From Bacteroidota bacterium (lineage in GTDB: Bacteria > Bacteroidota > Bacteroidia > NS11-12g > UBA955), in NCBI GenBank assembly GCA_963169345.1, contig CAUJCT010000019.1:105366-169365 (forward strand): 64,000 bases of DNA, written 5' to 3'. Position numbers and translations under genes: made by a program. The notes beneath the pieces are model-generated. The model was not told the origin of the DNA. It did no database searches and worked only from the letters and a program-made list of their open reading frames with translations. Position 1 is the first letter of the stretch, and each line of letters begins with the position of its first letter. Positions 1,128-53,058 of this stretch are shown piece by piece.

Positions 1128-1131
1128 AAAG

Positions 1132-4686: not shown

Positions 4687-4758
4687 AAAAGTTAGTTTTT
4701 TTTCAATACAATTCTAATTGTTTTATTACAATTATCAAAATATCAGAGAAATTTAGTT

Positions 4759-4796: not shown

Positions 4797-4874
4797 TTAA
4801 GTAAAAAAATATTAAATTTTTCTTGATTATAGAGGTTGTTTTCTATTAGTTCGCTTTTATAAAATAAAAACCCT

Positions 4875-26467: not shown

Positions 26468-26473
26468 ATATAT

Positions 26474-27307: not shown

Positions 27308-27869
27308 AACCAAACTAAACAAACGATTATTTTGGATTAAATTTCTTTCCTTAATTTACATTACTTTTTCGATTTGTCTGATTTTAGGATTGGAATTAAG
27401 GTTGTCTGAATTTATCCAAGGATTATTGTTTATTCTTGTTTTTAACCTAATTATAAAATCAGTACAATTAAGAAGGTTGATTGAATATCTTTTTTATACA
27501 TACATTGTTTACAATATTACTGAATATATAATTTTAAGATTTTATTTTAAACTGCAACTATTATATATTCTTGAGTTCATTAAATGGTTTCTTTTATCTA
27601 TTCTTGGATTATCTCTTTTTAAAACATCTTTTAAGATTTATGGAATTTCAATATTGCTAAGTTCTATACTACTAGTTGTTGCTCCAATTGTATATGCAAA
27701 TTTAGTTAAAATTGGTTTTGTAGAAATTAATCTAATGTCAAAAAGAATTATTTTTATTTTTCTCGAAGTTGTAATGTTGATTCCTTTTTGCATTTTGATC
27801 TTTCTCTCAAGTTCGCAAAAAAAAGTTGTAAAGTATATTTTAGATGATAATATAAATTTAGATGGTTGA
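27276..27869 (+). CDS. polytopic membrane protein (possible second immunity or accessory protein, could be spurious in AT-rich DNA)
   Basis: 197 aa with ~5 hydrophobic segments. It overlaps the putative immunity gene by 32 nt. Confidence 0.35.
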   Translation: MMKLNTETINKTKLNKRLFWIKFLSLIYITFSICLILGLELRLSEFIQGLLFILVFNLIIKSVQLRRLIEYLFYTYIVYNITEYIILRFYFKLQLLYILEFIKWFLLSILGLSLFKTSFKIYGISILLSSILLVVAPIVYANLVKIGFVEINLMSKRIIFIFLEVVMLIPFCILIFLSSSQKKVVKYILDDNINLDG

Positions 27870-27973
27870 CTGAAATAGAATAATTATTTGAATGAATTCT
27901 AAATATATATAAGCAATAGTTCTTGTATTTTAATTTTCAATTCCTAACTTTTAACATAGCAAACTAAAACTTC

Positions 27974-32153: not shown

Positions 32154-32159
32154 CAAATA

Positions 32160-32190
32160 AAAAGGTCTCAGAAATGAGGCCTTTTTTATT
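32160..32190 (+). terminator. Rho-independent terminator-like hairpin
   Basis: AGGTCTCAgaaaTGAGGCCT imperfect inverted repeat followed by TTTTTT just after the stop at 32153. Confidence 0.5.
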
Positions 32191-32516
32191 CCATACTACT
32201 AAAATTTTAATTGAATAGTGTTTTTCGAATTAATTTAAGAGCAAATTGTTTGAATTTATCATAAAAATGCCTTTACTTTGAGTCAACTATAAATATACTA
32301 AAGCTCAATCTCTTGTTTACAAAGATTTAAATTTAAGGAAATATATCTAAAGACAGATAACATATTTTTAGATGGAAATATATTTATTAGAGATATTTAG
32401 ATTTTTTTAGATCAAAACAATTTACTTAAACATAAAACAAACAATATCATTAACTATAAAAAAGATTAGGCAATAATATGGTTGGTTAACCTAATTGCAT
32501 TTTTACGGAATACAAA

Positions 32517-32948
32517 TCAATAGTTCGATTTTATTATTTTTATTAGTAAGAGGGTGAAAAAGAAACTTGAAAAAAAGCACCAAGTCAAAATGAAAATTAA
32601 AAGGTGTTGCTTATAGTAACCATAATCGGTTAAAAATGGATAAACCAATGTATAAAGAATTGTTATAAACTGTAGCTTTATTGACATAGTAATATAGCTT
32701 AATAATGCAGGAAAATTACCGCTTTCACGAATAAATTTCATTGGTCTAGTGGTCATTGACTGAATCATTGTTAAAATTGTGATGAAAAAGCCTATAAGTG
32801 AGATGAATACCTTGCTTAATTCGCTCAATTTGTCGCAGGACTCTTTGAACATATAAATTCTTTTCTCAAAAACTATTGTACATAAGGTTAGTAAGACGGA
32901 TATAACCAAAGCCCTATATTTCTCCCATATTTTAGCACTTTTACTCAT
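32517..32948 (-). CDS. small membrane protein (3-4 TM), third gene of an unknown 3-gene cassette
   Basis: 143-aa hydrophobic ORF. ATGA overlap with the upstream 192-aa gene. Confidence 0.5.
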   Translation of the reverse strand: MSKSAKIWEKYRALVISVLLTLCTIVFEKRIYMFKESCDKLSELSKVFISLIGFFITILTMIQSMTTRPMKFIRESGNFPALLSYITMSIKLQFITILYTLVYPFLTDYGYYKQHLLIFILTWCFFSSFFFTLLLIKIIKSNY

Positions 32949-33523
32949 TCATTAACTCTTTTATCATAAGTGGCTAATAAATCTTCTCTTTCAAACAAAA
33001 ACATTTTTTCAATTTCGAACATTCTTGCTTTAATAGCAATTTCATTAATGTGTCTTGTATATTCTACATATATCTTTCTTCTCATTACTTCACTAACTAA
33101 ATCAAATGGTTTAAAGTAGTTTCCGTCTTCATCTTGTCCATAGACTTCCATTTTTCCAACCTGTTTCATACCATCTGAATTAAACCGCTTAAACAAATCA
33201 ACTAGACTTCTAAATTTCGGTAGATTCAAATGATTCCCCTTTCCAACGCTTTTATATTCTATTGTAAGTTGATCTGCATTTGTATCCTTACTTGCATCTA
33301 CTATTTGAGAAACACTTTTTTCTTGAGAAGCAAAAATATTGCCATTTGTTACTCTTGCTATTGAGATTTTAAAAGACCTTAGAGTCCTTAATGATTTATA
33401 GTTTTTGAGAATTTTGGGGTCATAAACATTGAGAAATTTAATTTTTTCTTGCAAATTATGACAACGCTTAAAATATTCATAAAACTTTTCTCTAGTAACC
33501 CCATTTTGAATTCTTTCGATCAT
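32945..33523 (-). CDS. hypothetical soluble protein, middle gene of the cassette
   Basis: 192-aa ORF with no family I can assign. Translationally coupled to the downstream membrane protein. Confidence 0.5.
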   Translation of the reverse strand: MIERIQNGVTREKFYEYFKRCHNLQEKIKFLNVYDPKILKNYKSLRTLRSFKISIARVTNGNIFASQEKSVSQIVDASKDTNADQLTIEYKSVGKGNHLNLPKFRSLVDLFKRFNSDGMKQVGKMEVYGQDEDGNYFKPFDLVSEVMRRKIYVEYTRHINEIAIKARMFEIEKMFLFEREDLLATYDKRVNE

Positions 33524-33553
33524 AAGTATTTGCGAATATTCATCATATATGAA

Positions 33554-33907
33554 TTAAGTTGCAAATCCTAAAGATTCTTCATTTGTTAAAGGTAGTTCTT
33601 TGGCTTCCTTTCTAGAAGCATTACTAGCAAGCGGCAAGTTATAATATTTACTATTAATGAATGTGCCTTTGAAATAACCATTTGATGAATACTCTATTTC
33701 ACCCACCTTATAAGTTTGAGGTATCGGAGCAGAATAATCGCCTTGGTTGTTTAATTCTGCCAAAAATAAGTCTTTTAGCTTTTGATTTTCGTTGCTGATT
33801 TTTTTTGAAAATTTCAGCTCATAGAAATCTATTGTGATTTCTTTTGTATTAGCCATTTTCAAATAAATGAAAAAATAGTTAAACAGCAAAATTATTGTAT
33901 AAAACAA
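33554..33907 (-). CDS. small hypothetical protein, first gene of the cassette (true start probably the internal Met at ~33856, MANTKEITIDF…)
   Basis: ORF 117 aa. A hydrophobic N-terminal extension in AT-rich DNA makes the later Met more plausible. Confidence 0.45.
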   Translation of the reverse strand: MFYTIILLFNYFFIYLKMANTKEITIDFYELKFSKKISNENQKLKDLFLAELNNQGDYSAPIPQTYKVGEIEYSSNGYFKGTFINSKYYNLPLASNASRKEAKELPLTNEESLGFAT

Positions 33908-34171
33908 TCATAAATGACTTACAATTAGCTTCATTCTGAGTGTAAACATATTAAATATAGCTGGTTAGACTCAAGTCAAAGTTTTATGTATTTGTAAACA
34001 TAAATTAAATGCCTATAAGAAGAATATAAGAAATACTGTATTTGAAATATTGTTGCTGCTATAAATTACCACATTGACAAAGCACATAACGAAACGTATG
34101 ATGGTACGCTTGACACTGGCGTGGCTGTTGTCCTTTACGTTATGTAGGCTGTGGTAAGCCTTGAGCAGTAA

Positions 34172-34712: not shown

Positions 34713-35573
34713 CTACAATGGTTCACAATTTCTTAGGTTGTATCGAAATTGAAACTCGTGGCAGTATCTAATCAGATGATGTTTTGAAACCCAATGATAG
34801 ACACCTGTTATACCTCGTTTTAGATGACTCCAAAAACCTTCAATGGTTTTTGTGTGAATTTCAGGATTATCAAAATCAACATACTCTTTAGCCCCATTAT
34901 TGATTACATAATGTTCTCTTCCCTTTCGACTGACTCTTCTGTATCCCATGTGGTCATCAGTCATTACTACCGTTCCATCATTAGTATAACTCTTGGCAAA
35001 TGAAGAAAGCCCTTTAACTCTTTTTACTACTACAACCCTTACATTTCCTCCTCTTTCAACAAATCCAACTACTGGGGTCTTGTTTTCACTAACTAGACCA
35101 CGTTTGCTTCTAACATATCTTTTATTCTTCATCTTTCCACCAACATAGGTCTCGTCTACCTCCACAGTTCCACAAAGTTTTTTCTTGAATTCAGGGTTGT
35201 TGAACATAGCTTTCCTGATTCTATGCAACATAAACCAAGCTGTTGGCTGGGTTACATTAATTTCTCGAGCAAGACCATAGAAAGAAATACCTTTCTTTGA
35301 ATTGATAAAGGTTATTATGGCTCTTAGCTATTTTTGTATTGGAATGTGTGAGTTCTCGAATATTGTTCCCTTTAAAACGCTAAACTGCTTTTTACAGACA
35401 CTACACTTGTATCTATTTACAGTCTTTAAGTACCAGAATTTCTCATAACAGCCACAATGAGGACAGTCTTGATGAGTGTTCCAATGGATTTGACCTAGCT
35501 GTTCGGTACATTGTTCTTCAGATAAATTCGAAATCTCATAGAGATTTTTAAAATGAAATGTTGAGTTAATCAT
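34713..35573 (-). pseudogene. IS1595-family transposase interrupted by a single in-frame TAG (at 35328-35330), an IS remnant
   Basis: N-terminal zinc-ribbon part (CPHCGCYEKFWYLKTVNRYKCSVCKKQFSVLKGTIFENSHIPIQK), TAG, then the same frame continues LRAIITFINSKKGISFYGLAREINVTQPTAWFMLHRIRKAMF… through the DDE domain (TIEGFWSHLKRGITGVYHWVSKHHLIRYCHEFQFRYN). The TAG sits where family members have Trp (KW). Confidence 0.75.
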
Positions 35574-39181: not shown

Positions 39182-42103
39182 TCATCTTAAGAGTGTTATG
39201 CTCACCTTCTGACTCTGTATGCCTCCTCGTTTTGGGATGATGAAGATGACGCATATATAAACTCCCTGCTCGCAATCTTCACCTTTATAGGTGCCGTCCC
39301 AGCCCTGGTTGACGTCCTCGCTGTAAAATACTCTCTCACCCCAGCGGTTGTATATCTCCATACGGTATTTGTTCACGAATGGAGTGACTTGTGGCTTGTA
39401 TACATCATTGACTCCATTGCCATCCGGTGAGAAGCAATCTGGAATTAACAGTCTTATTTCAGTGTAAAGTGTGCCAGTTTGCTTTATGGCAGTATCCTTG
39501 CACCCTTCGGAATTGGTAACGACCAAAGTAATCATTCTACTGTTGGTATCCTCGAAACCTATCGTCGGACTTTTCTCGGAACTTTCGGAAACTTGGTCAA
39601 ATATCCATTTCCATTGTTTGACCCCTACGCTAGAAAGGTCGTTCATCTGGAATTCTGCCGTGTTGAACTTGGTGTCAGGTAACCGGATATAACTGAAATT
39701 GGCTTCTGGTTTTGGATAAACTACGACTTGTTGATCCGTCGTATCCTTGCATCCAAAACTGTCTGTGACTATAAGTCTGACATTGTACTTGCCCTGACTT
39801 CCAAATTGATGAGATACTTGTTCGTTGGTTTCGAATCCCCCATCGTTAAAATCCCAATAAAAACTGTTATTACTTTTTGTTCCGAATGAACTGGAACTCT
39901 CAAGTCGAATTCTCTCTGGGAAACAGACCGTGTCCGAGCCAAACCTAGCAACAGGAGGTTCAAGAACGCGCAATGGTAATTGAGCAGTATCCTTGCATCC
40001 GTTTTCAGATTCTGTTTTTAATTTTATCAGGTAATCTCCAAAATTGGAGTAGCTGTAATTTAGGTTGTTGGATGTGAAGTTCTTGCCATCTCCAGTTTGC
40101 CAGTCAAATCCCAATAGATTAACTGTTGAGTCTAAAATGGAGACTTTTAAATTAAACAGATTTCCTTCCAGGCATTGTGTGTCCTTTAGTGGGTTGATGA
40201 TTTTGGTAACACCATACTTTTCAAGTAAAATGTCTTTTGATACCGTGTCCTTGCATCCAAATTTATTTGAAACGATTAATTTGAATATATGTTTGCCAAA
40301 TTCCTTGGTTATCCAATCATTGATTCCTTCAGCATTTCCAATTGAATCAGTATCATAATACCAAGTATAGTCCACCGAATCATAAGCTTTGATGGTCTGG
40401 TCTGTAAGGTTGAAGCTGTTTGAATTTTGACATTGTGCACTGTCATTTATAGAGAATCTGGCAATCGGGTGCCTTAAGACTGCGATTTCCTTTTCTGTCG
40501 TGTCGGTACATGAGTGTTTCGAAAGTGCAATAAGCTTTACAGTGTAATCACCATAAGACAAATATCTATGTGTTGGGGATTTAGCGGTATCTTCTTGCAG
40601 GTCGCCAAAGTCCCACCGATAATTTAAATTTCCTGTTGATATTGTGGATGTATTCAGATAGTCAAATTGGTTGCCTTTGTAACATTGCGAATCTTTGTTT
40701 GTTTGAAAGAAAGCTACTGGATGCTCAGCAACCAGCACAGATTTCGAAATCGTGTCGTAACAATTGGTCAGGTATGAGTAGGCAATCAGTTGAACATTTT
40801 TGATGCCTGTATTTGAATAGTTGATGGTCTTTGTTGTCAATCCGATAGATGAATCTCCATTGCCATAATCCCAATAGTAGCTGAGCGTGTTCATCGCGCT
40901 GAACGTTGTCGCACTCGTAAAATCAAAGGAATTGCCGTTGAAGCACTGAATAGTGTCATTAATTGTAAACTGGGATATTGGTCGTTCAAGAAGACTGATA
41001 GGATGACTAGCTGAATCTCGACATCCATTTTCAGTTTCAACAACGTACCAAAGTGTATAATTATCGGATTTGTTAGGGTAGAATTTTGATGCGGGTTTGA
41101 AGGCTGTATCCTGAGTTCCATCCCCGAATTTCCATGTGCTCGACAATTTGCCGTATTTGAGTTTGGAGTTGTTTAGGATTTTAAATTCATTCTTTTGCCA
41201 GCATTGTGAATCGTTTGGTATGGTGAAATCTATGACAGGAAAAGCAAAAGTTATGGCAGGCTGAATTAAAGTATCTGAACAGCCGTTATCCGCCCAAGAT
41301 ACAAGCCTTACAGAAAAAGTATCCTCCGTTATAAACGAATGTGAAAACAAATTGGCTGTAGATGCAAACCCATCAGATAATTTCCAGTCAAGAAATAGGA
41401 TTGAATCATCGGTTGTCTCTGTCCTATCAATAAAATTGAACAGATTCTCTTTGAAACATTGCTTGTCTTTGTCGATGTCGAAGTTTGCTTTGGGGTTGGC
41501 TTTTATCATCACTGAATGATAAAAGGTGTCTTTGCATCCATTTGTGTTCTCAGTTTGGAGCCTTATCGATTTTTTACCAGAACTTGGGAATTTCAAATTT
41601 TCAATAGATAATGAAGTATCCGATACAAAGGTATCCAAATGCCAATGGAAACTTGACAGATTAGTGCCAGATAATCGGTTGGCCTGTATAGTGAAGTTGT
41701 TTTCATTCAGACATTGCGTGTCCTTGTTGATTGACAAGTTGAGTTCAGAATTCTCAAACACTTTGACTATTCTATCAGAAGTATCTGGACAACCGAAAAA
41801 ACTCTTGGTTATGAGTCTGATTTTAAATGTTCCCGAATCCTTGTATTGTTTAGTGCAAATCGTATCATTAGAGTTCGTTCCATCGCTAAAGTCCCAGCTT
41901 ACCATCCCTTTTTGGTCACCTAAAACTCTGCTAGTGTCAACGAGATAAAAAGCGCTTGTCCTTTGGCACATCACGGTATCTGAAATTGTAAATCCCGCAT
42001 ATACTTTAGGTTGCAACACAACGATGGTATCCTTGCCGACACAATTGGCGCTATCTGTAGCTTTCAGAATGTATTGTCCGGGCTTGTTGACAAAAATATT
42101 CAC
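39182..42103 (-). CDS. PKD-repeat surface protein with gliding-motility/T9SS type-B C-terminal domain, the C-terminal part of a split gene
   Basis: About 10 PKD-like ~85-aa modules (…GCKDT/GCSDT/GCRDS…). C-terminal CFSPDGNGVNDVYKP…YNRWGERVFYSEDVNQGWDGTYKG…GVYICVIF. It has no signal peptide of its own and begins at GTG directly after the upstream ORF's TAA in the same frame. Confidence 0.6.
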   Translation of the reverse strand: MNIFVNKPGQYILKATDSANCVGKDTIVVLQPKVYAGFTISDTVMCQRTSAFYLVDTSRVLGDQKGMVSWDFSDGTNSNDTICTKQYKDSGTFKIRLITKSFFGCPDTSDRIVKVFENSELNLSINKDTQCLNENNFTIQANRLSGTNLSSFHWHLDTFVSDTSLSIENLKFPSSGKKSIRLQTENTNGCKDTFYHSVMIKANPKANFDIDKDKQCFKENLFNFIDRTETTDDSILFLDWKLSDGFASTANLFSHSFITEDTFSVRLVSWADNGCSDTLIQPAITFAFPVIDFTIPNDSQCWQKNEFKILNNSKLKYGKLSSTWKFGDGTQDTAFKPASKFYPNKSDNYTLWYVVETENGCRDSASHPISLLERPISQFTINDTIQCFNGNSFDFTSATTFSAMNTLSYYWDYGNGDSSIGLTTKTINYSNTGIKNVQLIAYSYLTNCYDTISKSVLVAEHPVAFFQTNKDSQCYKGNQFDYLNTSTISTGNLNYRWDFGDLQEDTAKSPTHRYLSYGDYTVKLIALSKHSCTDTTEKEIAVLRHPIARFSINDSAQCQNSNSFNLTDQTIKAYDSVDYTWYYDTDSIGNAEGINDWITKEFGKHIFKLIVSNKFGCKDTVSKDILLEKYGVTKIINPLKDTQCLEGNLFNLKVSILDSTVNLLGFDWQTGDGKNFTSNNLNYSYSNFGDYLIKLKTESENGCKDTAQLPLRVLEPPVARFGSDTVCFPERIRLESSSSFGTKSNNSFYWDFNDGGFETNEQVSHQFGSQGKYNVRLIVTDSFGCKDTTDQQVVVYPKPEANFSYIRLPDTKFNTAEFQMNDLSSVGVKQWKWIFDQVSESSEKSPTIGFEDTNSRMITLVVTNSEGCKDTAIKQTGTLYTEIRLLIPDCFSPDGNGVNDVYKPQVTPFVNKYRMEIYNRWGERVFYSEDVNQGWDGTYKGEDCEQGVYICVIFIIPKRGGIQSQKVSITLLR

Positions 42104-43621
42104 TTAAGACTGACCAGTACTCCATTCATGTTTAGCAAAAGGCTTTCCTGGTCGCAAGATTAGAAAAATCTGATTGCAAAATGCTGTATCATTTCCCAAT
42201 ATTGGCTTTGGATCTTTAATTTCAATTTTCTTAACAAATGAGTCCTTGTATCCTGAATAAAAAAAGTAAGCCTTTACAGTATAATAACCAGCCTTAGTAT
42301 AGATATGCGTGGCACCATACTTGTTTTTTGATGAATTAAGAATTCCAGAAATGGTATCACCAAAATCCCAAACTGTTGAGTCTAGGTTCTCAGTTTTTGA
42401 CAAGGTAAATTGCGTTGTGTCGTTGTTGCAATTGCGCCAATAGTTAAAGATTCGTTTAATGAAAAAAGACTGAGTGAATGCTGGCAGTCCGAGCTGGGTC
42501 TTACCCTTGGCTAAGGTAATTTGACTCCTTACAAAGTTTACATTGGCAGCATTAGTATCCGGTTTGTTGATGCATGACAAGTATGTCACAATGAACTGGG
42601 ACATATAAATTTTATTATCTGGACCGAGCTGAAGACTTCCAAAAGTGCCGTTTATTACGCTATCAATTACAACCCTAGAATTTCTAAATGCGGTGCTAGA
42701 AGTGGCCAGCGCATTATATTGAACTAGCTTCGCCTGTCCATGATCCGTCAAGTACAAGTATTTACCATTCGGAGAAAACTCGGCACCGTAACCATATCGA
42801 AATGGGAATTTCCAAACATTACTGACTTGGCCTGTAGCGCTATTGAAATTACCAATTACTGCTGTATCCTTGTTGTAGTTCACTGCAACGAACTTTTTGC
42901 CGTTTCCCGAAACCTTTAAGGCTCCTATCATCGAATAACCACCGTTGATATAAAGTCCAGTCCTAGAGTATACTGGCGTAGTGTTTACACCCAATGAATT
43001 CACTTTGTATGCCGCTATGGAATCAGATTTGTATTTGTATGCAAGTATCCAAAATTCCCTACCGTTAGCATGACTAACGGCAGTCAGTTTCTCACAAACA
43101 GGCGTCAAAAGTTTCGTGTTTTTGGAACTCACAACAACATCACCTCTCCCAGAATCCAATCTCATATCAACGATACTGTATGTCATACCGTCATCACGCC
43201 CAAGATCCTGAACACAAAATATGAAATACAGGCTTGGACTATCAGGATATGGCACGATGATGGCGGATTGAGTAGAAGAAGCATTTCCTAATAAGTCGTA
43301 TCCATTAGGCATTTTCTTATGAATGCTGTCATACACATTTACACCGTCTGTATAAAAAAGCAATCTGCCAGTGCCAGTGCTTATTGAGGCACAACCTTCA
43401 TAAGTTTTCATGGCGCTGTTTGTCATGGAGGTAAGAGTCCCAGAATTGAAACTTATTGCCCCATATTCGCCAAAATACCAATTGTTGGCCTCTTTTTGAG
43501 CTTGTAAATTCACAGCGAATGCTAAAGCTAAAAAAAACACAAAATACTTTGAATAGCCAAACTCACACTTCTTATTATCAAGTGATTGAATTAACAATTG
43601 TATTTTCCATAAACACCGCAT
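42104..43621 (-). CDS. N-terminal part (signal peptide plus beta-rich domain) of the same split T9SS protein
   Basis: 505-aa ORF with a signal peptide (KYFVFFLALAFAVNLQAQ). Its stop TAA (42104-42106) abuts the GTG of the downstream ORF in frame. Confidence 0.6.
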   Translation of the reverse strand: MRCLWKIQLLIQSLDNKKCEFGYSKYFVFFLALAFAVNLQAQKEANNWYFGEYGAISFNSGTLTSMTNSAMKTYEGCASISTGTGRLLFYTDGVNVYDSIHKKMPNGYDLLGNASSTQSAIIVPYPDSPSLYFIFCVQDLGRDDGMTYSIVDMRLDSGRGDVVVSSKNTKLLTPVCEKLTAVSHANGREFWILAYKYKSDSIAAYKVNSLGVNTTPVYSRTGLYINGGYSMIGALKVSGNGKKFVAVNYNKDTAVIGNFNSATGQVSNVWKFPFRYGYGAEFSPNGKYLYLTDHGQAKLVQYNALATSSTAFRNSRVVIDSVINGTFGSLQLGPDNKIYMSQFIVTYLSCINKPDTNAANVNFVRSQITLAKGKTQLGLPAFTQSFFIKRIFNYWRNCNNDTTQFTLSKTENLDSTVWDFGDTISGILNSSKNKYGATHIYTKAGYYTVKAYFFYSGYKDSFVKKIEIKDPKPILGNDTAFCNQIFLILRPGKPFAKHEWSTGQS

Positions 43622-43775: not shown

Positions 43776-46700
43776 TTATTTAAATTGCGTTTTATCTATT
43801 GCAATAATGCATGAAGATATCATTTCATCAAGTGTATTTGAAAATTGACAGTTCTCAATTAGCCATTCAATTTGCTTACTTGATATTGTGACGTTTTTGT
43901 GCGAAAGGTCTTTAAGTGTGTAAATTTTTCTAACTCTTGATTTTTGGCCTTTTAATTTATCTAATTCTGGTATAAGTATTTCTAGCCAAAGATCTGCGAA
44001 TTGATCTAAGTCGACATAAAGATCATCTTCAGTTTCAGGATTAAATAAATTTAATAATTTTTCGGCATTTAATTTGTCTTTCCCTGAGAGTGAATTAACT
44101 TTTAAATTGTGATTTAATATATTTTCTCCTTGATTTAATGCTCTTCTTTTTTTCCATGGCAACAATTGCTTCTCTTGACTTCGTAGTTTTCTAATTATGT
44201 CCTTTAGCTTTTGTGAAGTATCAATTTCTTTCCAATTTCGTTGAACAATGGTTGTTTTTGACAAGTATGATTTAAGTAAATAAGTAATGTCAGAAAAATC
44301 TGTGTAACCTTTGTTATTTTCATCAATCAATAACCATTTTGGACTTTTTCGGGTACTTCCTCTAAAGGAAAAGAAACACCAATTTTTGTCGGTTTCAATA
44401 AAACTGATAGCTGTCTTAACGGTTGAATCAACATCTTTGTAAAGATCATAAATAGCATGGTCTATTAGTGCGCTTTCCCCTTCTATAAGGCCATATAAAT
44501 CTTGTGTGCTATCCCTTACGCCTTCCCATTCATAATCACTACTTGAATATTCTGTGTAAGCTTCAATAATATTTTGAGTACTCAAACTATTTTTGAGATA
44601 TTTCTCATAAATGACTTTAGGTATTCCTACATTGTTTCCAATTAAATCTTCTGTAAGCAATAAAGTGTCTATTATCCTTCTGTCGCCGTTTAAGGAGAAT
44701 TCTTCAGAATCATTTGGCCACATTACTGTAATTTCATTATGTTCGCAATCCATCCTTTCAATACGGCCAATACGCTGTTCAATAACCCTAAGTACGCTTG
44801 GCATGTCTAGTAAGATAAGACAGCTGGAATCTTGAAGATTAATCCCTTCAGACATAGCATCAGAACAAAAAGCAATCAACTTTTCTTTTGAATGATTTTC
44901 TAGTGAAAACAGCTTCATTACTTCGGTTCTGTCTTTGCTGTTATGTCCTGCTGCAACAATGGTTTTAAATTGGGGATTTCTTTCTTGAAGTAACTTGTTT
45001 AAGTAATCAAGTGTGATTACTGTTGAATCAAAAGCTAATATCTTGTTATGCTCTTCTAAAGCCTTAATAATGGTATCGATCTTACTAATTTCTCGATTTT
45101 TACTTAATTGATTTACAAGTCTTCCAATTTTTTCATATATTTCAATCTCTTTGTCACATGTAGTTTTATACAATGTCTCATCATATAACCAATGATAACT
45201 TTCTTGTAAAAGTCTTTTATCTATAAACATTTTAGGCACTATGTTTTTAAGTTTTTTTACCTTTCCAATCATATCACCTGATAAGTTTTTAGTAGAGTTT
45301 AGTCCAAATTCTTGATTAGCGGCATTTGTCCCATATAAGTATTCATGAATGGCACATTGGGAAGATCTCAATTTTACCCTAACCATATAGGCTGCTAATG
45401 CTGTTGCTGAAGTAAACCTTTGGTTAATATAATTAACCATTTCTTCATCTCCTTTAATAAAATTTGGGATTTTGATTCTTTGCAAATAATGAATTCCTTT
45501 CAATTTGGATGTCAATGTTGAAATTTGCATCCCAATTTTTTTGTCAGAGACTGTCTCATTAGTTTCATAAACGATTGAATTTGTTTTCGGGTACTTACAA
45601 ATATGCCCTAACCTATTAGTATATAATTTTGGAGATCGTTCAATCATTTTATTCAGTTCTTTTTTCGTTCGACGAACTATAAACTGATTCACATATTTTT
45701 TAAGTTGCTCAAGGTGCTGTTTGTTAATGCCCTTTTTTCTTTTCTTCCTTAACTCAAAATAAGTTTTTAAATCGTCGTCACTAAGGTTATCAATATCAAG
45801 AAGTTCAATTAATCTCAAAATATCATCTATTTTTTTATTGATGGGGGTTGCGGTTGACAAAATTACATTACATGAACCTTTTGGAATAATTGCTTTACTT
45901 CTTTTAGAATGAGGATGAAGGTAATTATGAGCTTCATCAATAACCAATATATCAGAACTATGGATAGCCTTTTGGATATTCCTTTGATTTTTATCCAAGC
46001 CAAGACTTAATTTCCCCATTGATTCAATTTTATTATAAAGCACAAAATGTTCCTGTTCTCTTTCCCAATTTTCAATAACAGTTTTAGGACAAATTATTAA
46101 CGCATTTGAACGATCCTTTCTACCATTTTCCCATAGCCAATGAAACAATGTATAAGCAAGAGCCGTAGCAAATTTAGTTTTCCCACTTCCTGTTGGGTCA
46201 GCTATTAGTACTCGTCCTTGATCTTGGATAATTTTCATTGCTCGCGCTATTCCCATTTTTTGAGAAGGCCACAATTTATGGGTTATTAAAGCTTGATAAA
46301 GAACAGGATAATCTTTCATCCATTTGCTTTCTAAAATTTCAGAAATCGCTCTGGCTAAAGCCTCTTGCCAGGTTGCTTCTTTGAATAATTTACTAAATAA
46401 TTCAATCAGGTGGTAGTTATAATCATCGGATATAGTATAATAATATTCAGCTATTCGTTTAATATCTGAATATTGCTCTTTTTCCTTTTTAGACGAAGAA
46501 CTTTGAATTCTAATGTTTGCTTCTGTTTGTAAAATAGTTCCTGATTTGCTAAAATTGGATGAACCCAATATGGCTGTTTCGTCACCTATATATATTTTTG
46601 CATGGAGTTTATCCCTTACTTTAAATTCTATACAATTATTATTGATTTTCTCAATAATATTAAGAACAGAACCACATAGTTTTAAACTAACATTTTGCTT

Positions 46701-47009
46701 TACCCAATAATTTTTTATCTCGGTTGGAAGTGAATAGTGAGGAAGTCGAGCGCTCACTCTCTCATCAGGATCAAAGCCTATTACAATTCGAAGCTTTTTT
46801 AACTTTGGATAATCATTAACTCCAAAAACATCTATTAAATTGGATAAGGAAGTAAATCCTGTAAGTATTAAATAATTCTCTGAATTTTGAATGTCCTTTA
46901 AAAGCAAATCTTTGACTCTTCGATCTTGTTCCTTAAGATTTAAAGGAAAATCTTCTTGATTTGGCAAGTCAAGTTTATAGTTAAAGTCGAATAGATTAGG
47001 TGTTTTCAT
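43776..47009 (-). CDS. PLD-family (HKD) nuclease domain fused to an SF2 (DEAH-type) helicase with ~320-aa C-terminal unknown domain, a candidate single-protein defence gene
   Basis: HKD motif HAKIYIGDETAILGSSNFS (res ~136-154). Helicase motif I LIADPTGSGKT, Ia LIICPKT, II VIDEAHNY, III ILSTATP, V FCSDAMSEGINLQ, VI QRIGRIER. Confidence 0.85.
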   Translation of the reverse strand: MKTPNLFDFNYKLDLPNQEDFPLNLKEQDRRVKDLLLKDIQNSENYLILTGFTSLSNLIDVFGVNDYPKLKKLRIVIGFDPDERVSARLPHYSLPTEIKNYWVKQNVSLKLCGSVLNIIEKINNNCIEFKVRDKLHAKIYIGDETAILGSSNFSKSGTILQTEANIRIQSSSSKKEKEQYSDIKRIAEYYYTISDDYNYHLIELFSKLFKEATWQEALARAISEILESKWMKDYPVLYQALITHKLWPSQKMGIARAMKIIQDQGRVLIADPTGSGKTKFATALAYTLFHWLWENGRKDRSNALIICPKTVIENWEREQEHFVLYNKIESMGKLSLGLDKNQRNIQKAIHSSDILVIDEAHNYLHPHSKRSKAIIPKGSCNVILSTATPINKKIDDILRLIELLDIDNLSDDDLKTYFELRKKRKKGINKQHLEQLKKYVNQFIVRRTKKELNKMIERSPKLYTNRLGHICKYPKTNSIVYETNETVSDKKIGMQISTLTSKLKGIHYLQRIKIPNFIKGDEEMVNYINQRFTSATALAAYMVRVKLRSSQCAIHEYLYGTNAANQEFGLNSTKNLSGDMIGKVKKLKNIVPKMFIDKRLLQESYHWLYDETLYKTTCDKEIEIYEKIGRLVNQLSKNREISKIDTIIKALEEHNKILAFDSTVITLDYLNKLLQERNPQFKTIVAAGHNSKDRTEVMKLFSLENHSKEKLIAFCSDAMSEGINLQDSSCLILLDMPSVLRVIEQRIGRIERMDCEHNEITVMWPNDSEEFSLNGDRRIIDTLLLTEDLIGNNVGIPKVIYEKYLKNSLSTQNIIEAYTEYSSSDYEWEGVRDSTQDLYGLIEGESALIDHAIYDLYKDVDSTVKTAISFIETDKNWCFFSFRGSTRKSPKWLLIDENNKGYTDFSDITYLLKSYLSKTTIVQRNWKEIDTSQKLKDIIRKLRSQEKQLLPWKKRRALNQGENILNHNLKVNSLSGKDKLNAEKLLNLFNPETEDDLYVDLDQFADLWLEILIPELDKLKGQKSRVRKIYTLKDLSHKNVTISSKQIEWLIENCQFSNTLDEMISSCIIAIDKTQFK

Positions 47010-47209: not shown

Positions 47210-47476
47210 TTAAAAAGACTTTCGCTTGTATTTGTCAATAAAAAGCTTGACGGACTTACTGTTGTATAGAATCAATTTTCTTACCGGTTGAGAAAATTCA
47301 ATCTCTCCTTGGTTTCTTAACTTTTGGATGGTAGACTTGCTTTTTATATTTAAGATAGACATTAGTTCTTTTTCAGTTATCCATTCTTTTTCTATCTTCA
47401 AATTTTCTTTGACTTTAAATATTATTTCATCGATTAATTTATAGAATGCTTCTGTTTCAATTATAATGACTTCCAT
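47210..47476 (-). CDS. excisionase/AlpA-like helix-turn-helix DNA-binding protein (mobile-element regulator)
   Basis: 88 aa. C-terminal …ITEKELMSILNIKSKSTIQKLRNQGEIEF… resembles Bacteroidota Xis-type HTH proteins. It lies upstream of and co-oriented with the PLD-helicase. Confidence 0.65.
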   Translation of the reverse strand: MEVIIIETEAFYKLIDEIIFKVKENLKIEKEWITEKELMSILNIKSKSTIQKLRNQGEIEFSQPVRKLILYNSKSVKLFIDKYKRKSF

Positions 47477-47536
47477 ATAAATGCAAAGTTATATCTAAAA
47501 TGACAAAAAAACAACTTAAGTTGCAGATAATTAGGT

Positions 47537-47558
47537 AGTTATTTTCAAAAATAACAAA
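47537..47558. promoter_or_regulatory. second copy of AGTTATTTTCAAAAATAACAAA palindrome-containing element
   Basis: Identical 22-mer to 1749-1770. Located ~60 bp upstream of the HTH gene start in the divergent region with 47890(+). Confidence 0.4.
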
Positions 47559-47639
47559 CTAATTTATTGTATTATTATATCAATAAATTGGTAAATAAAT
47601 ACTATTTTAGTGATATAGAAGAGTTTATCAAATTTTCTT

Positions 47640-47661
47640 AGTTATTTTTAAAAATAACAAC
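47640..47661. promoter_or_regulatory. third, 1-mismatch copy (AGTTATTTTTAAAAATAACAAC), still a perfect 18-bp palindrome
   Basis: Located 110 bp from the previous copy in the same intergenic region. Confidence 0.35.
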
Positions 47662-47889: not shown

Positions 47890-48432
47890 ATGACAAAAAA
47901 AGAAATAGAACAATGGATTATAGTCTTGAATGACCTCTTAATATTGACAGAAAATGAATTGAGCATGCAGGAAGATTTCAACTCTTACACATCTAGTAAG
48001 ATTAGCAATCTTCAGAGTGAGCTGAATGCAAACGAAGCTGCATTAAACAAAACATCCAATGATCCAACCCAGCAAGCTACTATTAAACACAATTTTGTTA
48101 ATTCTTTAAATGATCTTTCCAGAAGAATTAATGAGTTGCGTTATAAACCTATGCCACCATTTCAAATTGAAAAAGAATTTCGCCACTTTCATCAGACAAA
48201 CTTCAATTTCATAAAGCCAATTATGGCTCAAGTACCTTTTAGTTACAGTATTACACCAGACCCTCAGAACATTTACGGGAAAATACATAGAACTTGGGCA
48301 ATTAAGAATGTTTCAGAACTAAATGAATTTCTTAATTTAATAAATGACAAATTCGAAAGAGACATTAAACAATTAGATATGACTGAAATTGAGGGTGTTT
48401 CTCCAGTCTACTTTGTAATACATAGCAACTAA
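47890..48432 (+). CDS. hypothetical protein (island cargo)
   Basis: 180-aa ORF, no recognisable motifs. Confidence 0.5.
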   Translation: MTKKEIEQWIIVLNDLLILTENELSMQEDFNSYTSSKISNLQSELNANEAALNKTSNDPTQQATIKHNFVNSLNDLSRRINELRYKPMPPFQIEKEFRHFHQTNFNFIKPIMAQVPFSYSITPDPQNIYGKIHRTWAIKNVSELNEFLNLINDKFERDIKQLDMTEIEGVSPVYFVIHSN

Positions 48433-48652
48433 TTATATTGCATGAAAAGTAAAATTACATCCCAGTAAAATAAATCAAATCAGAAAATGCTAATAAAGGA
48501 ACTAATGGTGTAAATAGACAATATTCACAAGTTCACGGCAATAGAGGCATGCAACTCAACCCTAATCAGTCTAATAAGCAATAAACTTTGTCTTACTTTT
48601 TATAGAACAGACACATTCCCTTTTTGGGTTTAAGGAGGAAAATAATTTAAGT

Positions 48653-49615
48653 ATGCAGTTCATTTTTGACACAAATTATTATCGAGGTATTGTATTTGGA
48701 AAGGAATTGCTAGATATTCAAAAAAAGCTTTTTGAGCAAAAGGATAGGGAGCGTCTAAAAGGACATGAAATTCTATTTCCTAATATTGTCGCCATTGAAT
48801 TAATTAGCCATTTAAAGAGCGGTGATAATGCCCTTAGAGTATGTTATACTGCTCTACACTTTCTGGCTAATCATTGTAATAGAAACGGGGCGAATAAATT
48901 CAAAGGAACTTATATGCCAACTTATGAGGACCTAATTTCATTTTATTTCTTTCAAACTCCATCTGATCAATTTGGTATAGTTAATCGAAATTTAAATAAA
49001 TATGCTAATGACATTGGAGGGGTTTATAATATTGCAAATACTTTTGATTATAGGGATGTCATTAAGGAAATATCAGAATTTAAGAAATTTGGTATAAACA
49101 ATTTGATCTCAAATATTGAAAAGCACTATTTACCTGCGATACATCCTAATAAAATTTCAGATAAAGATATTTTCAATAAAAATGCAGAAGTGAAGGAGGA
49201 GTTTGAGCGGGCGTATAAAGTTGGAGATTATCATAAATGGTGGGGGTTGGTTTTTCTATCAATGGCAATGCAAGATAAAAAAATTGAGAAAATCAAACTC
49301 ACAAAGGAAGAGTTTCAACATGGCTTTTTGAATGATTTCAAGGTGTCAATTGATTTCTTTGTCAATCATGTTTGGCGTAAAGTTGCGGACACCAAAAAAG
49401 TAGAGTATTTTTATTCTCCTGAGACCGATGGAAAAAAAAGGTGGAATAGTTATTATGATATGCAGCTAATCTTTGCCACTGAATTTGAAAATTATAAGAA
49501 TCGTAATACAATCTTAGTAACAACTGAAAGAAAGATACAGGAGGCTTTTGCAAAAATGGGAAAAGAAAATCTTGTAATTAGTCCAGGCGAGTACCAAGAA
49601 TTGTTGGAAAAATAA
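48653..49615 (+). CDS. hypothetical protein with PIN-like N-terminus (weak)
   Basis: 320 aa. It starts MQFIFDTNYY… (the D-T-N pattern of PIN domains), with E in IVAIELISHL. Confidence 0.45.
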   Translation: MQFIFDTNYYRGIVFGKELLDIQKKLFEQKDRERLKGHEILFPNIVAIELISHLKSGDNALRVCYTALHFLANHCNRNGANKFKGTYMPTYEDLISFYFFQTPSDQFGIVNRNLNKYANDIGGVYNIANTFDYRDVIKEISEFKKFGINNLISNIEKHYLPAIHPNKISDKDIFNKNAEVKEEFERAYKVGDYHKWWGLVFLSMAMQDKKIEKIKLTKEEFQHGFLNDFKVSIDFFVNHVWRKVADTKKVEYFYSPETDGKKRWNSYYDMQLIFATEFENYKNRNTILVTTERKIQEAFAKMGKENLVISPGEYQELLEK

Positions 49616-50099
49616 AGAAAGTAGCAAAGTTAGGCGACTAGCCCAACCCAGGCATATAGAGCTTAAAAGCGTTAGGCATAAACACAAGCAATTCATAAGC
49701 ACACTTTTATTCTGATTCCTTTATGACTTTTTTGCAGCGACACCCTGAAAAATGGCTTTATTTTTAATTTTTCCTGTTTTGTTTTTTCTTTTGCAAAATT
49801 ACCATTTGCAGACTTAGGAAGTTTTCTAATGAAATAAAATCTTCGGCTATTGATAAAGTTTAATATTTGGATGCGTCTCGTTCGGTCAGGTTTCTGCATT
49901 ATTGTTTACCTATGCTTATATTGTCATTAGCTGTGTTTTGAATTTGTTGCTCAATAAAGTTATCATTATCACATGCAAGTCAACTGACAACCTTGGAATC
50001 TAGAATTGAGGAACGAAAAAATGAGTAAAGCTCATATTATGCCACTATCAAAGTAAGTTATAGGAATTCTCAGAAATTAAATCTCAACAAATGCTGACT

Positions 50100-50394
50100 C
50101 GAAGTATATTTTACCAAGCCAAAATGCAAATCGAATACCAATTAGTAATTATGCCATTTTTACGCACTTTATCGTATGGGATATAAGGGAAAGACTACTA
50201 GACATAGTTTCAGAGCCTTTGCAATATCTAACATCAAAGAAAAGCATTGTTCCCGCCACGAGGTTGTTGACCGACAATTAGCCCATGCTCATAGAAACTG
50301 TGTTAATGCTGCTTATGACAGGTCGCAATTTCTAGATGAGGAAGGTAATGATGTAAGAATGGGCAGATTACATAGACAAGATGAAATAATTTAA
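50100..50394 (+). pseudogene. decayed C-terminal fragment of a P4-type tyrosine integrase (frameshifted)
   Basis: One frame (from 50108) gives ILPSQNANRIPISNYAIFTHF. The ORF at 50176-50394 in another frame gives TRHSFRAFAISN…VDRQLAHAHRNCVNAAYDRSQFLDEEGNDVRM, matching the conserved integrase C-terminus (HGFR…QLAHA..N.VRAAYNRA.YL.ER). The catalytic N-terminal portion is absent. Confidence 0.55.
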
Positions 50395-50454
50395 CTTGAA
50401 AGCTTATTATTGTTAAATTTGAAAATAGTTATTTAGTTTAAGGAAATAATTGAT

Positions 50455-51075
50455 ATGGAAAAACTACTTGCAAGAATAAATAGCGCAAATAATCCTATAA
50501 TTGTTCCTGTTAATATAGAAAAATATTCAACACCGAATAATTGTTTTTACAATGTAATGAAGAAAGTAGCGTTGGATGGTGGCCATATTGTTTATGGATG
50601 GAAAATACATCATGGTAAATTGCTTGATGAGGCGGAAAGGCACGCAGTATGGAGGTCTCCTAATGGGGAGTTAATAGATATATCGCCATTCAATTCGAAT
50701 GGAAAAATTACATTTATAGAGGAAGATATGGGTTGGAAATACAGAGGACAATTTGAGGATAACATTCGAGTTAATATTACAGACAATCCATTAGTTGATG
50801 ACTTAATTTTATTGTGTGAGACAATTACAAAGCTCTGGCAAACGAGTTCAAGAAAGTCATCCCAAGAGATTTCCATTCATGTATTAATAAAGAAGCAAAT
50901 TGATGTACTTGAAGCAAACAAAATTAAGTTCGAATTTTTTGCTTTGAAAAACCAAGATCGTGAGTGCCTTTGTTTCTGTGGTAGTTCCTTAAAGTATAAA
51001 AAGTGCCATGTTTTTAATGAAGAAACTCAGCGAGAAATCCTTGGTTGGGCTAATAATGTCCTTAAAGAAGTTTAA
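50455..51075 (+). CDS. hypothetical protein with C-terminal SEC-C-like metal-binding motif
   Basis: 206 aa ending …CLCFCGSSLKYKKCH… (compare SEC-C CPCGSGKKYKKCC). Confidence 0.5.
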   Translation: MEKLLARINSANNPIIVPVNIEKYSTPNNCFYNVMKKVALDGGHIVYGWKIHHGKLLDEAERHAVWRSPNGELIDISPFNSNGKITFIEEDMGWKYRGQFEDNIRVNITDNPLVDDLILLCETITKLWQTSSRKSSQEISIHVLIKKQIDVLEANKIKFEFFALKNQDRECLCFCGSSLKYKKCHVFNEETQREILGWANNVLKEV

Positions 51076-51116: not shown

Positions 51117-52340
51117 TTACCTCAAACTCCCAAACACTTTGTCTGAGGCTTCGTCCACAGCCTCGTCTCTAATACTCGAAAGGTAAATTTGGGTAGTTTT
51201 AATATCGCTGTGCCCTAACATTTTACTAACTACTGAAATATCTATACCGGAGTCTCTGGCTAATGATGCAAATGAATGACGAATGGTATTGGTTGACATA
51301 TATTCAAAATCAATCCCAAGATGAGTCGCCAATTTCTTTAAATCTCTGTTATAATTTCTGATAGCCCCTCTCGAAATAGAATATGCCCTCTCTAAGCTCA
51401 TATCTTTATTTAGGAATGGTAAAATGTAATCTTCACTAGTTTTGTCCTCTGAAAAATGTTTAATAAGCGTTTCAAGTGGCTCCGAAATGCCGACATTATA
51501 CAACTTAGCCGTTTTTCGCCGATTATAGTAAATTCTATCATTTGTAATATCCTTGAGTTTTAGAAAACATATATCGGTGAAGCTCGCTCCTCTCATATAA
51601 AATGAGAACAGGAACACCAATCTAGTGCGCTCCATTGTTTTGTTAGTCAGTTTAGCTGACTTGATCTTTTCCAAAGCCTCCTTTGGCAAAGCTCTTTTAG
51701 CGGTATCTTGTCTTCTTACCTGATATTGGTCGAATGGATAGGCATCTTTGGGAAGTATTTTGTCAGAAATTGCTCTGTTCACCAATGCCCTCAATGCTCT
51801 AAGTTTTACCCCCAAACCATTTACACTATTACCTTTGGCTAGATACTTTTGTTCCATCTTTTTAATCCAAAAAGGAGTGATGTGTTCTAAGGGAATATCA
51901 GCAGTGCCATTGTAATTAATTACCCACTGCAGAAAGTCGTTGTATGCTTTTGCATTCCCGAACCTTCCTGCACCCTTCATTTCTTCAATAACAGTCTTTG
52001 TGTATTCAGCTATGCTGACGGCAATTGATTCATTCAAAATTCTAGTTTTAATCTCAGAAATCCCCATTCTTTTTATATCTCCAGATTCATCTAAGGCAGA
52101 CAATATGCTAAAAGCCTCAGCACTTCTGGTTTTTATCTTGGCATTTTCAGCCCCAATATTCTTGATTTTTTTACAGGTAGAGCGTATAGTTTGGCTGCTT
52201 TCATTCCATTCGCTTGGTTCTAATGTAACTCCCAAAGGAATTGAGGTACTTTTACGGTTTGCTATTATTCGCAGTATTAAAGGATAACCGTCCCTTTTTC
52301 TGTTTCTTTCATCTAAAATAACCCTGACACTATAAGACAT
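51117..52340 (-). CDS. site-specific tyrosine recombinase (Bacteroidota phage-integrase family)
   Basis: 407 aa. C-terminal catalytic region …RHSFASLARDSGIDISVVSKMLGHSDIKTTQIYLS… (R…HxxR…Y). Confidence 0.85.
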   Translation of the reverse strand: MSYSVRVILDERNRKRDGYPLILRIIANRKSTSIPLGVTLEPSEWNESSQTIRSTCKKIKNIGAENAKIKTRSAEAFSILSALDESGDIKRMGISEIKTRILNESIAVSIAEYTKTVIEEMKGAGRFGNAKAYNDFLQWVINYNGTADIPLEHITPFWIKKMEQKYLAKGNSVNGLGVKLRALRALVNRAISDKILPKDAYPFDQYQVRRQDTAKRALPKEALEKIKSAKLTNKTMERTRLVFLFSFYMRGASFTDICFLKLKDITNDRIYYNRRKTAKLYNVGISEPLETLIKHFSEDKTSEDYILPFLNKDMSLERAYSISRGAIRNYNRDLKKLATHLGIDFEYMSTNTIRHSFASLARDSGIDISVVSKMLGHSDIKTTQIYLSSIRDEAVDEASDKVFGSLR

Positions 52341-52473: not shown

Positions 52474-52522
52474 CCTCAGATTTCTAATCTGTGGGTCAGG
52501 GGTTCGAATCCCTTCGGGATCA
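52474..52522 (+). tRNA. partial tRNA gene: 3' ~49 nt (anticodon arm, variable loop, T-arm, 3' acceptor strand) of a tRNA-Arg(TCT)-like gene, a probable att-site remnant
   Basis: tcaga-TTTCTAA-tctgt anticodon arm (U33, anticodon TCT, A37). Variable loop gggtc. T-arm aGGGG-TTCGAAT-CCCtt. 3' strand cgggatc + a. No matching 5' acceptor strand or D-arm upstream, only AT-rich DNA. Confidence 0.5.
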
Positions 52523-52530: not shown

Positions 52531-52560
52531 AAAGCCTCCACGTATGTGGAGGCTTTTTTT
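52531..52560 (+). terminator. Rho-independent terminator (AAAGCCTCCACgtatGTGGAGGCTTTTTTT)
   Basis: Perfect 11-bp stem, 4-nt loop, 7 T's directly after the tRNA fragment. Confidence 0.7.
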
Positions 52561-52750
52561 ATGCCCTTAAAAAATCCCCAAGCGTCATCAGACCTTGAGG
52601 GATTTTTGAAAGGGCATAAAAAATAAGTCTTGCATCAGCAGGACTTTGATGCTTTTGCAGGACCTTTTTCTGGGATCATGAAATAATCCCTAGGCCCCAA
52701 GCGTCGCCAGAACTTGAGGGATTTTTGAAGAGGTATAAAAAATAAGTATT
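52561..52750. repeat. two tandem copies (~85% identical, ~55-65 nt) of a hairpin-forming element
   Basis: Copy 1 at 52576-52628 and copy 2 at 52695-52747 share ccccaagcgtc..cagaac/cttgagggatttttgaa.gg.ataaaaaataagt. Copy 1 is embedded in a long imperfect inverted repeat ATGCCCTTaaaaaatcccCAAG…CTTGagggatttttgAAAGGGCAT. Confidence 0.5.
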
Positions 52751-53058
52751 ACATTTTCATCGGGTCATTTTGTGAATTTGAATTACTGGAATCAATACCC
52801 TTACATTCTAATTGGCCGATTTTTGAATTCTGAACGGACTTCTTCCTAATCCATTCACTCATTTTTAACACTATATTTGTCTAACATTTATTATAATGGA
52901 ACGGTAAAAAAGACGATTATTATTACAGTTACAGTACTTTGTATAATAGTAGTTCGTTTTATTACTAATGACGATACAGGGGATAATTGTTAGGTCAAAC
53001 TTGGTTGAATGTATTGTGCTTGTAATTGGGGTGTTTTAAGGTTTAATGAAATTATTTT

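Follow-up and report, generated by a model that had tools for sequence, protein, structure and literature searches.

We analyzed a 64,000-nucleotide stretch of contig CAUJCT010000019.1 (GenBank assembly GCA_963169345.1, positions 105,366 to 169,365 of the forward strand) from a Bacteroidota bacterium, hereafter called the window, and focused on a gene at 43776..47009 (minus strand, stop codon included). The open reading frame (ORF) is intact and starts with ATG, giving a product of 1,077 amino acids. The alignment with homologues holds from the first residues of the protein, and an AlphaFold2 model of the full-length chain has a pLDDT of 76.8. Based on the ORF list, the translation, the homologues and the model, we found that the product contains three parts: an N-terminal phospholipase D (PLD) nuclease domain with a single HKD motif (residues ~36-181; 46467..46904, minus strand), an ATPase of superfamily 2 (SF2) of the Swi2/Snf2 type, the double-stranded DNA translocase class (residues ~245-765; 44715..46277, minus strand), and a family-specific C-terminal domain (CTD) of about 310 residues (residues ~770-1077; 43779..44702, minus strand). 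This confirmed the three-part layout proposed by an earlier reading of the same DNA, the original prediction, with support from Pfam matches, motifs and the Snf2 fold. We refer to the gene as the PLD-Snf2 gene and to its product as the query.

The N-terminal domain is assigned, by motif and Pfam membership, to the restriction-endonuclease branch of the PLD (HKD) superfamily. Pfam PLDc_2 matched residues ~119-179 of the query at 29.6-32.6 bits against a cut-off of 27. PF09565 (RE_NgoFVII), which is the N-terminal PLD domain of the restriction endonuclease NgoFVII, matched residues 36-181 at 22.5 bits, slightly below its cut-off of 23.8. In separate scans of 20 family members, each limited to the first 235 residues, PLDc_2 matched 20 out of 20 and RE_NgoFVII 18 out of 20. 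The PADLOC models DpdK and DrmC fell on the same residues. The HKD motif (residues 136-154; 46548-46604, minus strand) reads H136-A-K-I-Y-I-G-D-x5-G-S-S-N152, the canonical HxKx4Dx6GSxN, including K138, D143 and G149. No other true HKD motif occurs in the chain, in agreement with the single-HKD domain that had been predicted. A profile of the N-terminal domain searched against PDB sequences gave a weak match alone (E=0.037, to a poxvirus two-HKD enzyme), so the PLD assignment rests on Pfam and the motif. With one HKD motif on each chain, a complete active site would have to be assembled from two chains. In Nuc and BfiI, the PLD active site is likewise built from two chains. Such a site is also known for the nucleases SauUSI (PMC7913695) and MtsD (bioRxiv 10.64898/2026.09.23.753747). 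By analogy with these enzymes, the query would form a homodimer with one active site made from two single-HKD domains.

The central part has the sequence and predicted fold of a Swi2/Snf2 motor. Pfam identified SNF2-rel_dom at 62.7 bits, as well as ResIII and Helicase_C. When PDB sequences were searched with a family profile, the leading matches were all Swi2/Snf2 enzymes (SsoRad54-like at 6e-18, followed by CHD1L, RapA, and ISWI), and a Foldseek search with the full-length AlphaFold2 model gave RapA as the best match, with CSB and CHD1 also retrieved. The SNF2-type N-lobe, the Helicase_C lobe, motifs I-VI and the Snf2 fold are all present, and a helical insertion (~459-640) separates the two RecA lobes. 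The SF2 helicase with its motifs had thus been recognized correctly, and the PDB-profile and Foldseek matches refine it to Swi2/Snf2, a sharper assignment than 'DEAH-type SF2 helicase'. Enzymes of this class move along duplex DNA without unwinding it.

We then analyzed residue conservation in an alignment of 42 representatives from the CTD search, with 28-43% identity to the query. In the PLD domain, H136, G149, and S150 were invariant and K138 and N152 were at least 90% conserved. In the motor, K277, T278, D358, E359, H361, Q745, R746, G748, and R749 were invariant. SNF2-rel_dom and Helicase_C were kept in all 42 homologues, and PLDc_2 was detectable in 31 of them. The invariance of nuclease and ATPase residues indicated that both activities are under purifying selection.

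The CTD had no match in Pfam, PADLOC or PDB sequences. In it, residues 770-860 are helical and acidic (pI 4.2), residues 861-930 make up a small beta unit, and a near-invariant LLPxKKRRAL motif sits in a third part, a basic helical bundle; several Trp residues of the CTD are invariant. A CTD-only profile searched against 1.84 billion cluster representatives retrieved 447 clusters, 162 of them at E<=1e-30. The domain was always located at the C-terminus of proteins of ~1,060-1,230 amino acids or of obvious fragments. Because it was found only at the C-terminus of PLD-Snf2 proteins, it is specific to this family and is not a shuffled module. We infer that it is the sole candidate for recognizing a target or trigger.

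At 50% identity, the family comprises at least 447 clusters, mostly from Bacteroidota. A word-indexed search recovered more than 100 full-length homologues (~1,075 amino acids) at 42-80% identity from Terrimonas, Chryseobacterium, Olivibacter, Pedobacter, Dyadobacter, Niastella, and other Bacteroidota, for which the most specific database name was 'SNF2-related protein'. Searches of phage records and IMG/VR contigs gave no family member; partial matches to some PHROG helicase families were seen.

To place the family, we compared it with characterized systems in which a PLD nuclease is combined with an SF2 motor. SauUSI, an ATP-dependent Type IV enzyme of S. aureus (PDB 7CLG), is a stand-alone protein made of PLD nuclease, SF2 ATPase, coupler, and target recognition domain (TRD) (PMC7913695). 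Its C-terminal TRD reads modified cytosine and turns the ATPase on, which leads to translocation and shredding of the DNA between sites (PMC7913695). It is a single polypeptide acting alone without a methyltransferase, as the query would be. The two proteins are similar in size (953 and 1,077 amino acids) and share the order of single-HxK PLD nuclease, linker, SF2 ATPase, helical region, and C-terminal recognition domain. The query therefore shows the SauUSI-type layout, namely a stand-alone PLD - SF2 ATPase - C-terminal domain protein without a cognate methylase. SauUSI was not retrieved among the sequence and structure matches of the query, and homology to SauUSI or to its SRA-like TRD was not found.

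In the effector MtsD of MANTIS (formerly Gao_RL), whose structure was solved by cryo-EM, a PLD domain (H122) is fused to an SF2 domain (K260). Its role as a nuclease effector that depends on ATPase activity is proven, and it forms a dimer in which there is one PLD site (bioRxiv 10.64898/2026.09.23.753747); comparative work labels it 'HKD-endoDNase + Swi2/Snf2 helicase'. H122 and K260 of this protein, which belongs to a BREX-related type 2 system, lie at nearly the same positions as H136 and K277 of the query. However, MtsD has no TRD-like C-terminal domain, and it requires MtsA (a DUF499 AAA+ protein), MtsB, and the methyltransferase MtsC. No gene for a DUF499 AAA+ protein, for a small DUF protein, or for an N6-adenine methyltransferase, the partners with which MtsD is encoded, was found on the island in the window. 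Two models that we tentatively take to represent MtsD matched the query weakly: NF042964 ('phospholipase D-like domain-containing anti-phage protein'), with a cut-off of 1100 bits, reached 55.9, and PADLOC PLD_Helicase gave 35.6 bits over residues 709-762 only.

Further precedents come from PbeA, an HKD-SF2 fusion that forms the DNA-cleaving arm of the PbeABCD defense system (PMC10853773), and from HKD domains fused to SWI2/SNF2 ATPases in restriction-modification systems, which were recognized by computation long before this analysis and which PMC3417536 attributes to Iyer et al. 2006. PbeA and the HKD-SF2 subunits of restriction-modification systems resemble the query in having an N-terminal HKD nuclease fused to an SF2 helicase, but they act either with an ABC ATPase, a small protein, and a DndE-like protein together or with a methylase, and no such partner is conserved for the query family. 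In light of SauUSI, MtsD, PbeA, and the HKD-SWI2/SNF2 fusions, the original prediction went too far in calling a single-protein PLD-helicase architecture undescribed. SauUSI, MtsD, and PbeA, being single-protein PLD fusions, also contradict its statements that single-protein nuclease-helicases use other kinds of nuclease and that DrmC with DrmD of DISARM is the nearest PLD-helicase pairing. PLD-helicase fusions are already established as restriction effectors, and the family varies this known theme with a Snf2 motor and a new CTD. Searching the literature for a system named 'PLD-helicase' returned no match.

Other Snf2-type defense proteins differ from the query in their nuclease or in their partners. 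HmaA is a solitary Snf2-nuclease fusion that protects against T4 (PMC11232893). Its nuclease is a C-terminal PD-(D/E)xK domain, in contrast to the N-terminal PLD nuclease of the query; PADLOC HmaA matched only the helicase C-lobe of the query (43.7 bits), and NOV_C did not match. ZorD, a Snf2-type defense helicase with nuclease activity, works with ZorABC. A modular model of 'PLD N-terminal domain + variable sensor' has also been described (PMC12191111). The pairing of a Snf2-like motor with PLD is shared with DrmD and DrmC of DISARM and with DpdE and DpdK of Dpd, but there it is split between separate proteins of multi-gene systems. These systems gave the best profile matches, DpdE and DrmD for the motor and DpdK and DrmC for the PLD domain. 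The scores were far below the cut-offs for DrmD (78.6 against 610 bits), DpdE (99.1 against 500), and DpdK (18.8 against 100). No neighbors encoding DrmA, DrmB, or the DISARM methylase DrmM were present in the window and no dpd genes were nearby, in line with the earlier exclusion of DISARM. Judged by profile scores, partner genes and the CTD, the query family belongs to none of SauUSI, MANTIS, DISARM, Dpd, and Hma.

More distant relatives, with 23-28% identity over the PLD domain and N-lobe, were observed on cyanobacterial and Lactococcus plasmids. On the Lactococcus cremoris plasmid pJM1F (L097, 1737-8745; L and P numbers denote our contigs), a gene for a 1,233-amino-acid PLD-helicase, 23% identical to the query over residues 48-391, overlaps a gene for a 1,106-amino-acid N6 DNA methylase. 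This gene pair is a classical ATP-dependent restriction-modification-like pair.

We next analyzed the genes surrounding the homologues. A total of 13 contexts were annotated (the window and 12 contigs), and 42 further loci were collected by scanning metagenome contigs with CTD-specific patterns; removal of near-duplicates left 39 non-redundant loci. A contig scan based on the full-length alignment had used generic Snf2 patterns and retrieved almost exclusively unrelated helicases, with 2 true members. We compared all neighbors against each other, with up to six ORFs per side. The neighborhood differed at each of the 39 loci, and the most frequent neighbor family reached only 5 of them. HerA (usually with SIR2) and Lamassu were each found at 5 out of 39 loci, and SbcC-like ATPases, PDC-S06/AAA_13, serine recombinases, and tyrosine integrases at 4 out of 39 each. 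Among the 124 genes located within two positions of the PLD-Snf2 gene, PADLOC recognized LmuB, AriA, PtuA, PDC-M62A, GajB, HerA, and capP, of which AriA and PtuA are PARIS/Septu-like ATPases, and Pfam identified chiefly ABC/AAA ATPases, SF1 helicases, AbiEii, and HerA. Methyltransferases did not recur: no family of them was seen twice or more among these 124 genes.

Individual loci carried established defense systems, mobile-element genes, or both. In Chryseobacterium, an SbcCD-like pair was followed by Gabija (GajA 805 bits, GajB 744 bits) and then by a serine recombinase and tRNA-Arg(tct). In Olivibacter, a DUF4011 helicase, an SbcCD-like pair, PDC-S06 (913 bits), and Cas2 were found, and in Niastella, NERD proteins and helicases. 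L088 represents an integrative element with an integrase adjoining tRNA-Gly, HTH_17, DUF5712, and a HEPN protein. L090 carried Endonuclease_NS, WYL, and AbiEi_2, L095 carried SIR2-HerA (462 and 539 bits) with ArdC, T4CP, and TraG, and the P0060 contig carried a relaxase and T4CP. Lamassu was located directly upstream in L091 and L093 (LmuA 292 bits; LmuB 665 and 194 bits across annotated contigs), and L099 contained RteC, HTH_17, a STAND-like NTPase, HigB, and an integrase. PADLOC scores of the neighboring Gabija, SIR2-HerA, Lamassu, and PDC-S06 systems ranged from 190-910 bits.

The carrier elements are unrelated to each other, with integrases 22-40% identical and helix-turn-helix (HTH) proteins that have no relation. 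On raw neighbor counts, the pattern of variable neighborhoods with known defense and mobile-element genes is that of defense islands. The predicted setting of anti-phage cargo was thus borne out: homologues are strongly linked to defense islands and mobile elements, with Gabija, SIR2-HerA, Lamassu, PDC-S06, LmuB, AriA, PtuA, GajB, and HerA beside them, and the proposal of a single gene without a partner agrees with the same comparison. The PLD-Snf2 gene behaves as single-gene cargo of defense islands and of several unrelated mobile-element backbones, and this context gives good support to its predicted role in defense as a single island-borne gene.

Some neighbors were located close enough to be noted separately. 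The distance from lmuB to the PLD-Snf2 gene is -8 nucleotides in L091, 5 in L093, and 95 in L103, and a STAND-like NTPase gene (1,074-1,247 amino acids) follows the PLD-Snf2 gene in L091 and L099 with overlaps of 31 and 1 nucleotides. These Lamassu- or STAND-linked loci (L091 7669-16950; L093 2406-11769; L099 8001-14482; L103 3929-10915) contain members of a sister clade at 41-44% identity, plus one close homologue (L103, 76%). The adjacency may reflect either operonic coupling or the ordinary dense packing of defense islands. A protein of ~560 amino acids with a PD-(D/E)xK-like motif (…DLLI…IIVETKAS…), which has no Pfam or PADLOC match, adjoins the gene in L004 (8261-9943), L101 (11235-12941), and L118 (10917-12584), upstream in one context and downstream in another, with 54% identity. 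We rejected it as a partner; it was found at 2 out of 39 loci (L004, and L101 and L118 as one group) and is absent from the window. Homologous proteins of ~1,130 amino acids were encoded close to the gene, on opposite sides, in L114 (4269-7652, 35 nucleotides) and L123 (10912-14304, -4 nucleotides).

The reading that we favor, with a probability of roughly 0.6, is that the gene product is a motor nuclease of the restriction type, autonomous and ATP-dependent, and that the gene is carried as defense cargo on a small integrase-bearing island. A role as a defense nuclease, directed against phages or plasmids, is predicted with reasonable confidence. The mechanism that we propose is drawn by analogy with SauUSI, BfiI, and MtsD, with SauUSI as the best precedent. 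Pairing of two protomers at the PLD domain, which has one HKD motif in each, would create a single active site that needs no metal. Driven by ATP, the Swi2/Snf2 motor would move along double-stranded DNA without unwinding it, and the CTD would recognize the target or trigger and license ATPase activity and cleavage. Self DNA would be spared through absence of the recognized feature: no methyltransferase or other partner is conserved, and the host DNA must therefore lack that feature. Among the candidates, a phage-type base modification (Type IV logic) would be the most likely, and a structure or end of invading or replicating foreign DNA less likely; that the trigger is a base modification is itself a tentative suggestion.

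Several points weigh against this reading. The left border of the island is undefined within the window. MtsD, the closest characterized PLD-SF2 fusion, does not act alone. The sister clade couples the gene tightly to Lamassu and STAND genes, which leaves room for dependence on a partner.

It is unlikely, in our judgment, that the query is an effector needing a separate sensor, that is, the nuclease arm of a multi-gene system switched on by an adjoining or trans-encoded SMC/ABC or STAND protein, with the copy in the window orphaned or served in trans. The short distances from lmuB in L091, L093, and L103, the STAND-like NTPase genes overlapping the gene end in L091 and L099, and the SbcC-like or SMC_N ATPases within a few kilobases in L004, L006, and the P0060 contig could all be understood in this way, as could the requirement of MtsD for MtsABC (bioRxiv 10.64898/2026.09.23.753747) and the link of PbeA to a CxC ABC ATPase (PMC10853773). 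However, no SMC/ABC or STAND gene is located on the island in the window, and the Lamassu and SIR2-HerA neighbors (5 out of 39 loci each) vary in position and orientation, as clustering in defense islands produces. The two STAND proteins have no detectable relation to each other, and the family has kept a large conserved CTD that a pure effector would not need. SauUSI, which has the same architecture, restricts directly via modification-dependent recognition (PMC7913695). This speaks against an abortive-infection nuclease that is silent until a phage cue and then degrades host and phage DNA, killing the cell. The absence of a methylase, and hence of obvious self-marking, would suit such an enzyme, and there are precedents in HmaA, a solitary Snf2-nuclease reported to be Abi-like (PMC11232893), and in HKD-SF2 fusions, for which a suicidal attack on self DNA has been proposed (PMC10853773). 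Sequence features do not separate the abortive from the direct-restriction mode, and we regard the abortive mode as rather improbable.

Many of the loci are integrative, mobilizable, or conjugative elements with integrase, RteC, relaxase, T4CP, TraG, or ArdC genes nearby, and the protein might accordingly serve the element and not the host, through DNA processing, exclusion of rival plasmids or elements, or help with maintaining the element. This appears highly unlikely given that the gene is carried by unrelated backbones, as shown by their integrases and HTH proteins, and occurs at some loci without element genes nearby, which is the behavior of cargo and not of backbone; anti-plasmid activity would be a form of defense anyway. 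The least probable explanation, and a very unlikely one, is a housekeeping Snf2 protein, either a RapA-like transcription factor or a repair or recombination translocase whose PLD domain has a TDP1-like repair role. RapA is the best Foldseek match and Snf2 proteins include repair factors, but NCBIfam RapA scored only 41.8 bits against a cut-off of 576, the PLD domain is of the restriction-endonuclease branch, the neighborhood is different at each locus, and the gene is located on a low-G+C island beside an integrase.

If the query protects alone, as in the favored reading of an autonomous motor nuclease, a broad and largely Bacteroidota family would join the short list of such enzymes. To our knowledge, SauUSI is the only well-studied PLD example on this list so far. 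The CTD, for which there is no recognizable match in fold, would then be a new recognition module, possibly useful for detecting DNA modification or structure, and a gap in the defense annotation of Bacteroidota, where PADLOC 2.0 and NCBIfam now give partial, sub-threshold matches, would be filled; concepts would be unchanged by the family. A more far-reaching possibility, which we consider doubtful, is that the CTD is a new kind of non-self sensor, telling foreign from host DNA without a methylation mark, and that in sister clades the same protein is a shared DNA-destroying effector in Lamassu (SMC) and STAND NTPase operons. If this were true, sensor systems thought to be independent would become linked.

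The island in the window was characterized next. An HTH_17 gene encoding an excisionase-like protein of 88 amino acids (47210..47476, minus strand; Pfam HTH_17 30 bits; PHROG 66 'excisionase and transcriptional regulator') is located upstream of the PLD-Snf2 gene and is co-oriented with it, as the original prediction had noted; the distance is 200 nucleotides. As a functional partner this gene was rejected: it is not conserved beside homologues and is part of the element backbone (excisionase-type). Upstream of the HTH_17 gene, a 22-nucleotide palindrome-like element (TAGTTATTTT[C/T]AAAAATAACAA) is present in two copies 103 nucleotides apart (47536-47557 and 47639-47660), which could be operators or recombinase arm sites. 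Four ORFs follow on the strand opposite to the PLD-Snf2 gene. Three of them, encoding 180 (47890-48432, plus strand), 320 (48653-49615, plus strand), and 72 amino acids (50176-50394, plus strand), had no Pfam or PADLOC match, and the fourth, encoding 206 amino acids (50455-51075, plus strand), contains a SEC-C motif and matched phrog_37148 (E=1e-14). None of the four ORFs (47890..51075) was found beside PLD-Snf2 homologues, and they are possibly further cargo.

A tyrosine integrase of the Bacteroidota mobile-element type (51117..52340, minus strand; Pfam Arm-DNA-bind_5, SAM_5, and Phage_integrase) is 22-24% identical to the integrases of other islands carrying homologues. It is followed by a tRNA-Arg(TCT)-like 3' fragment of ~49 nucleotides (52474..52522, plus strand; Rfam tRNA 21.8 bits against a cut-off of 29), which comprises the anticodon arm, T arm, and 3' acceptor strand and aligns with the intact tRNA-Arg(tct) of L004. 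The fragment is a probable attachment-site (att) remnant. A terminator-like hairpin (~52531-52561) is located just after it, and just past both is a 60-nucleotide direct repeat (52576-52635 and 52695-52754; 87% identity, 119 nucleotides apart). The G+C content of the region 43.6-52.5 kb is 0.31, compared with 0.35-0.37 in the flanks. No second copy of the tRNA fragment or att was found in the window, and ARAGORN and Rfam at the gathering threshold detected no intact tRNA anywhere in it, which is why the left border cannot be drawn. Thus, the predicted island, bounded by an integrase and bearing a tRNA remnant, is real, but only one end is marked and the island looks decayed.

To the left of the PLD-Snf2 gene are PKD/CHU_C surface-protein genes (42104-43621 and 39182-42103), which are likely host genes. 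Farther left, the Zn-ribbon and DDE parts of an IS1595-family transposase (34713-35231; also L001 12682-13542) were called as separate ORFs, and the gene may be frameshifted or decayed. Other low-G+C patches in the window (1-5000, 26000-28000, and 32000-34000; 0.24-0.31 compared with ~0.35-0.44 around them) may be further foreign insertions. The patch at 32.5-33.9 kb contains small ORFs without a family match and adjoins the insertion sequence element.

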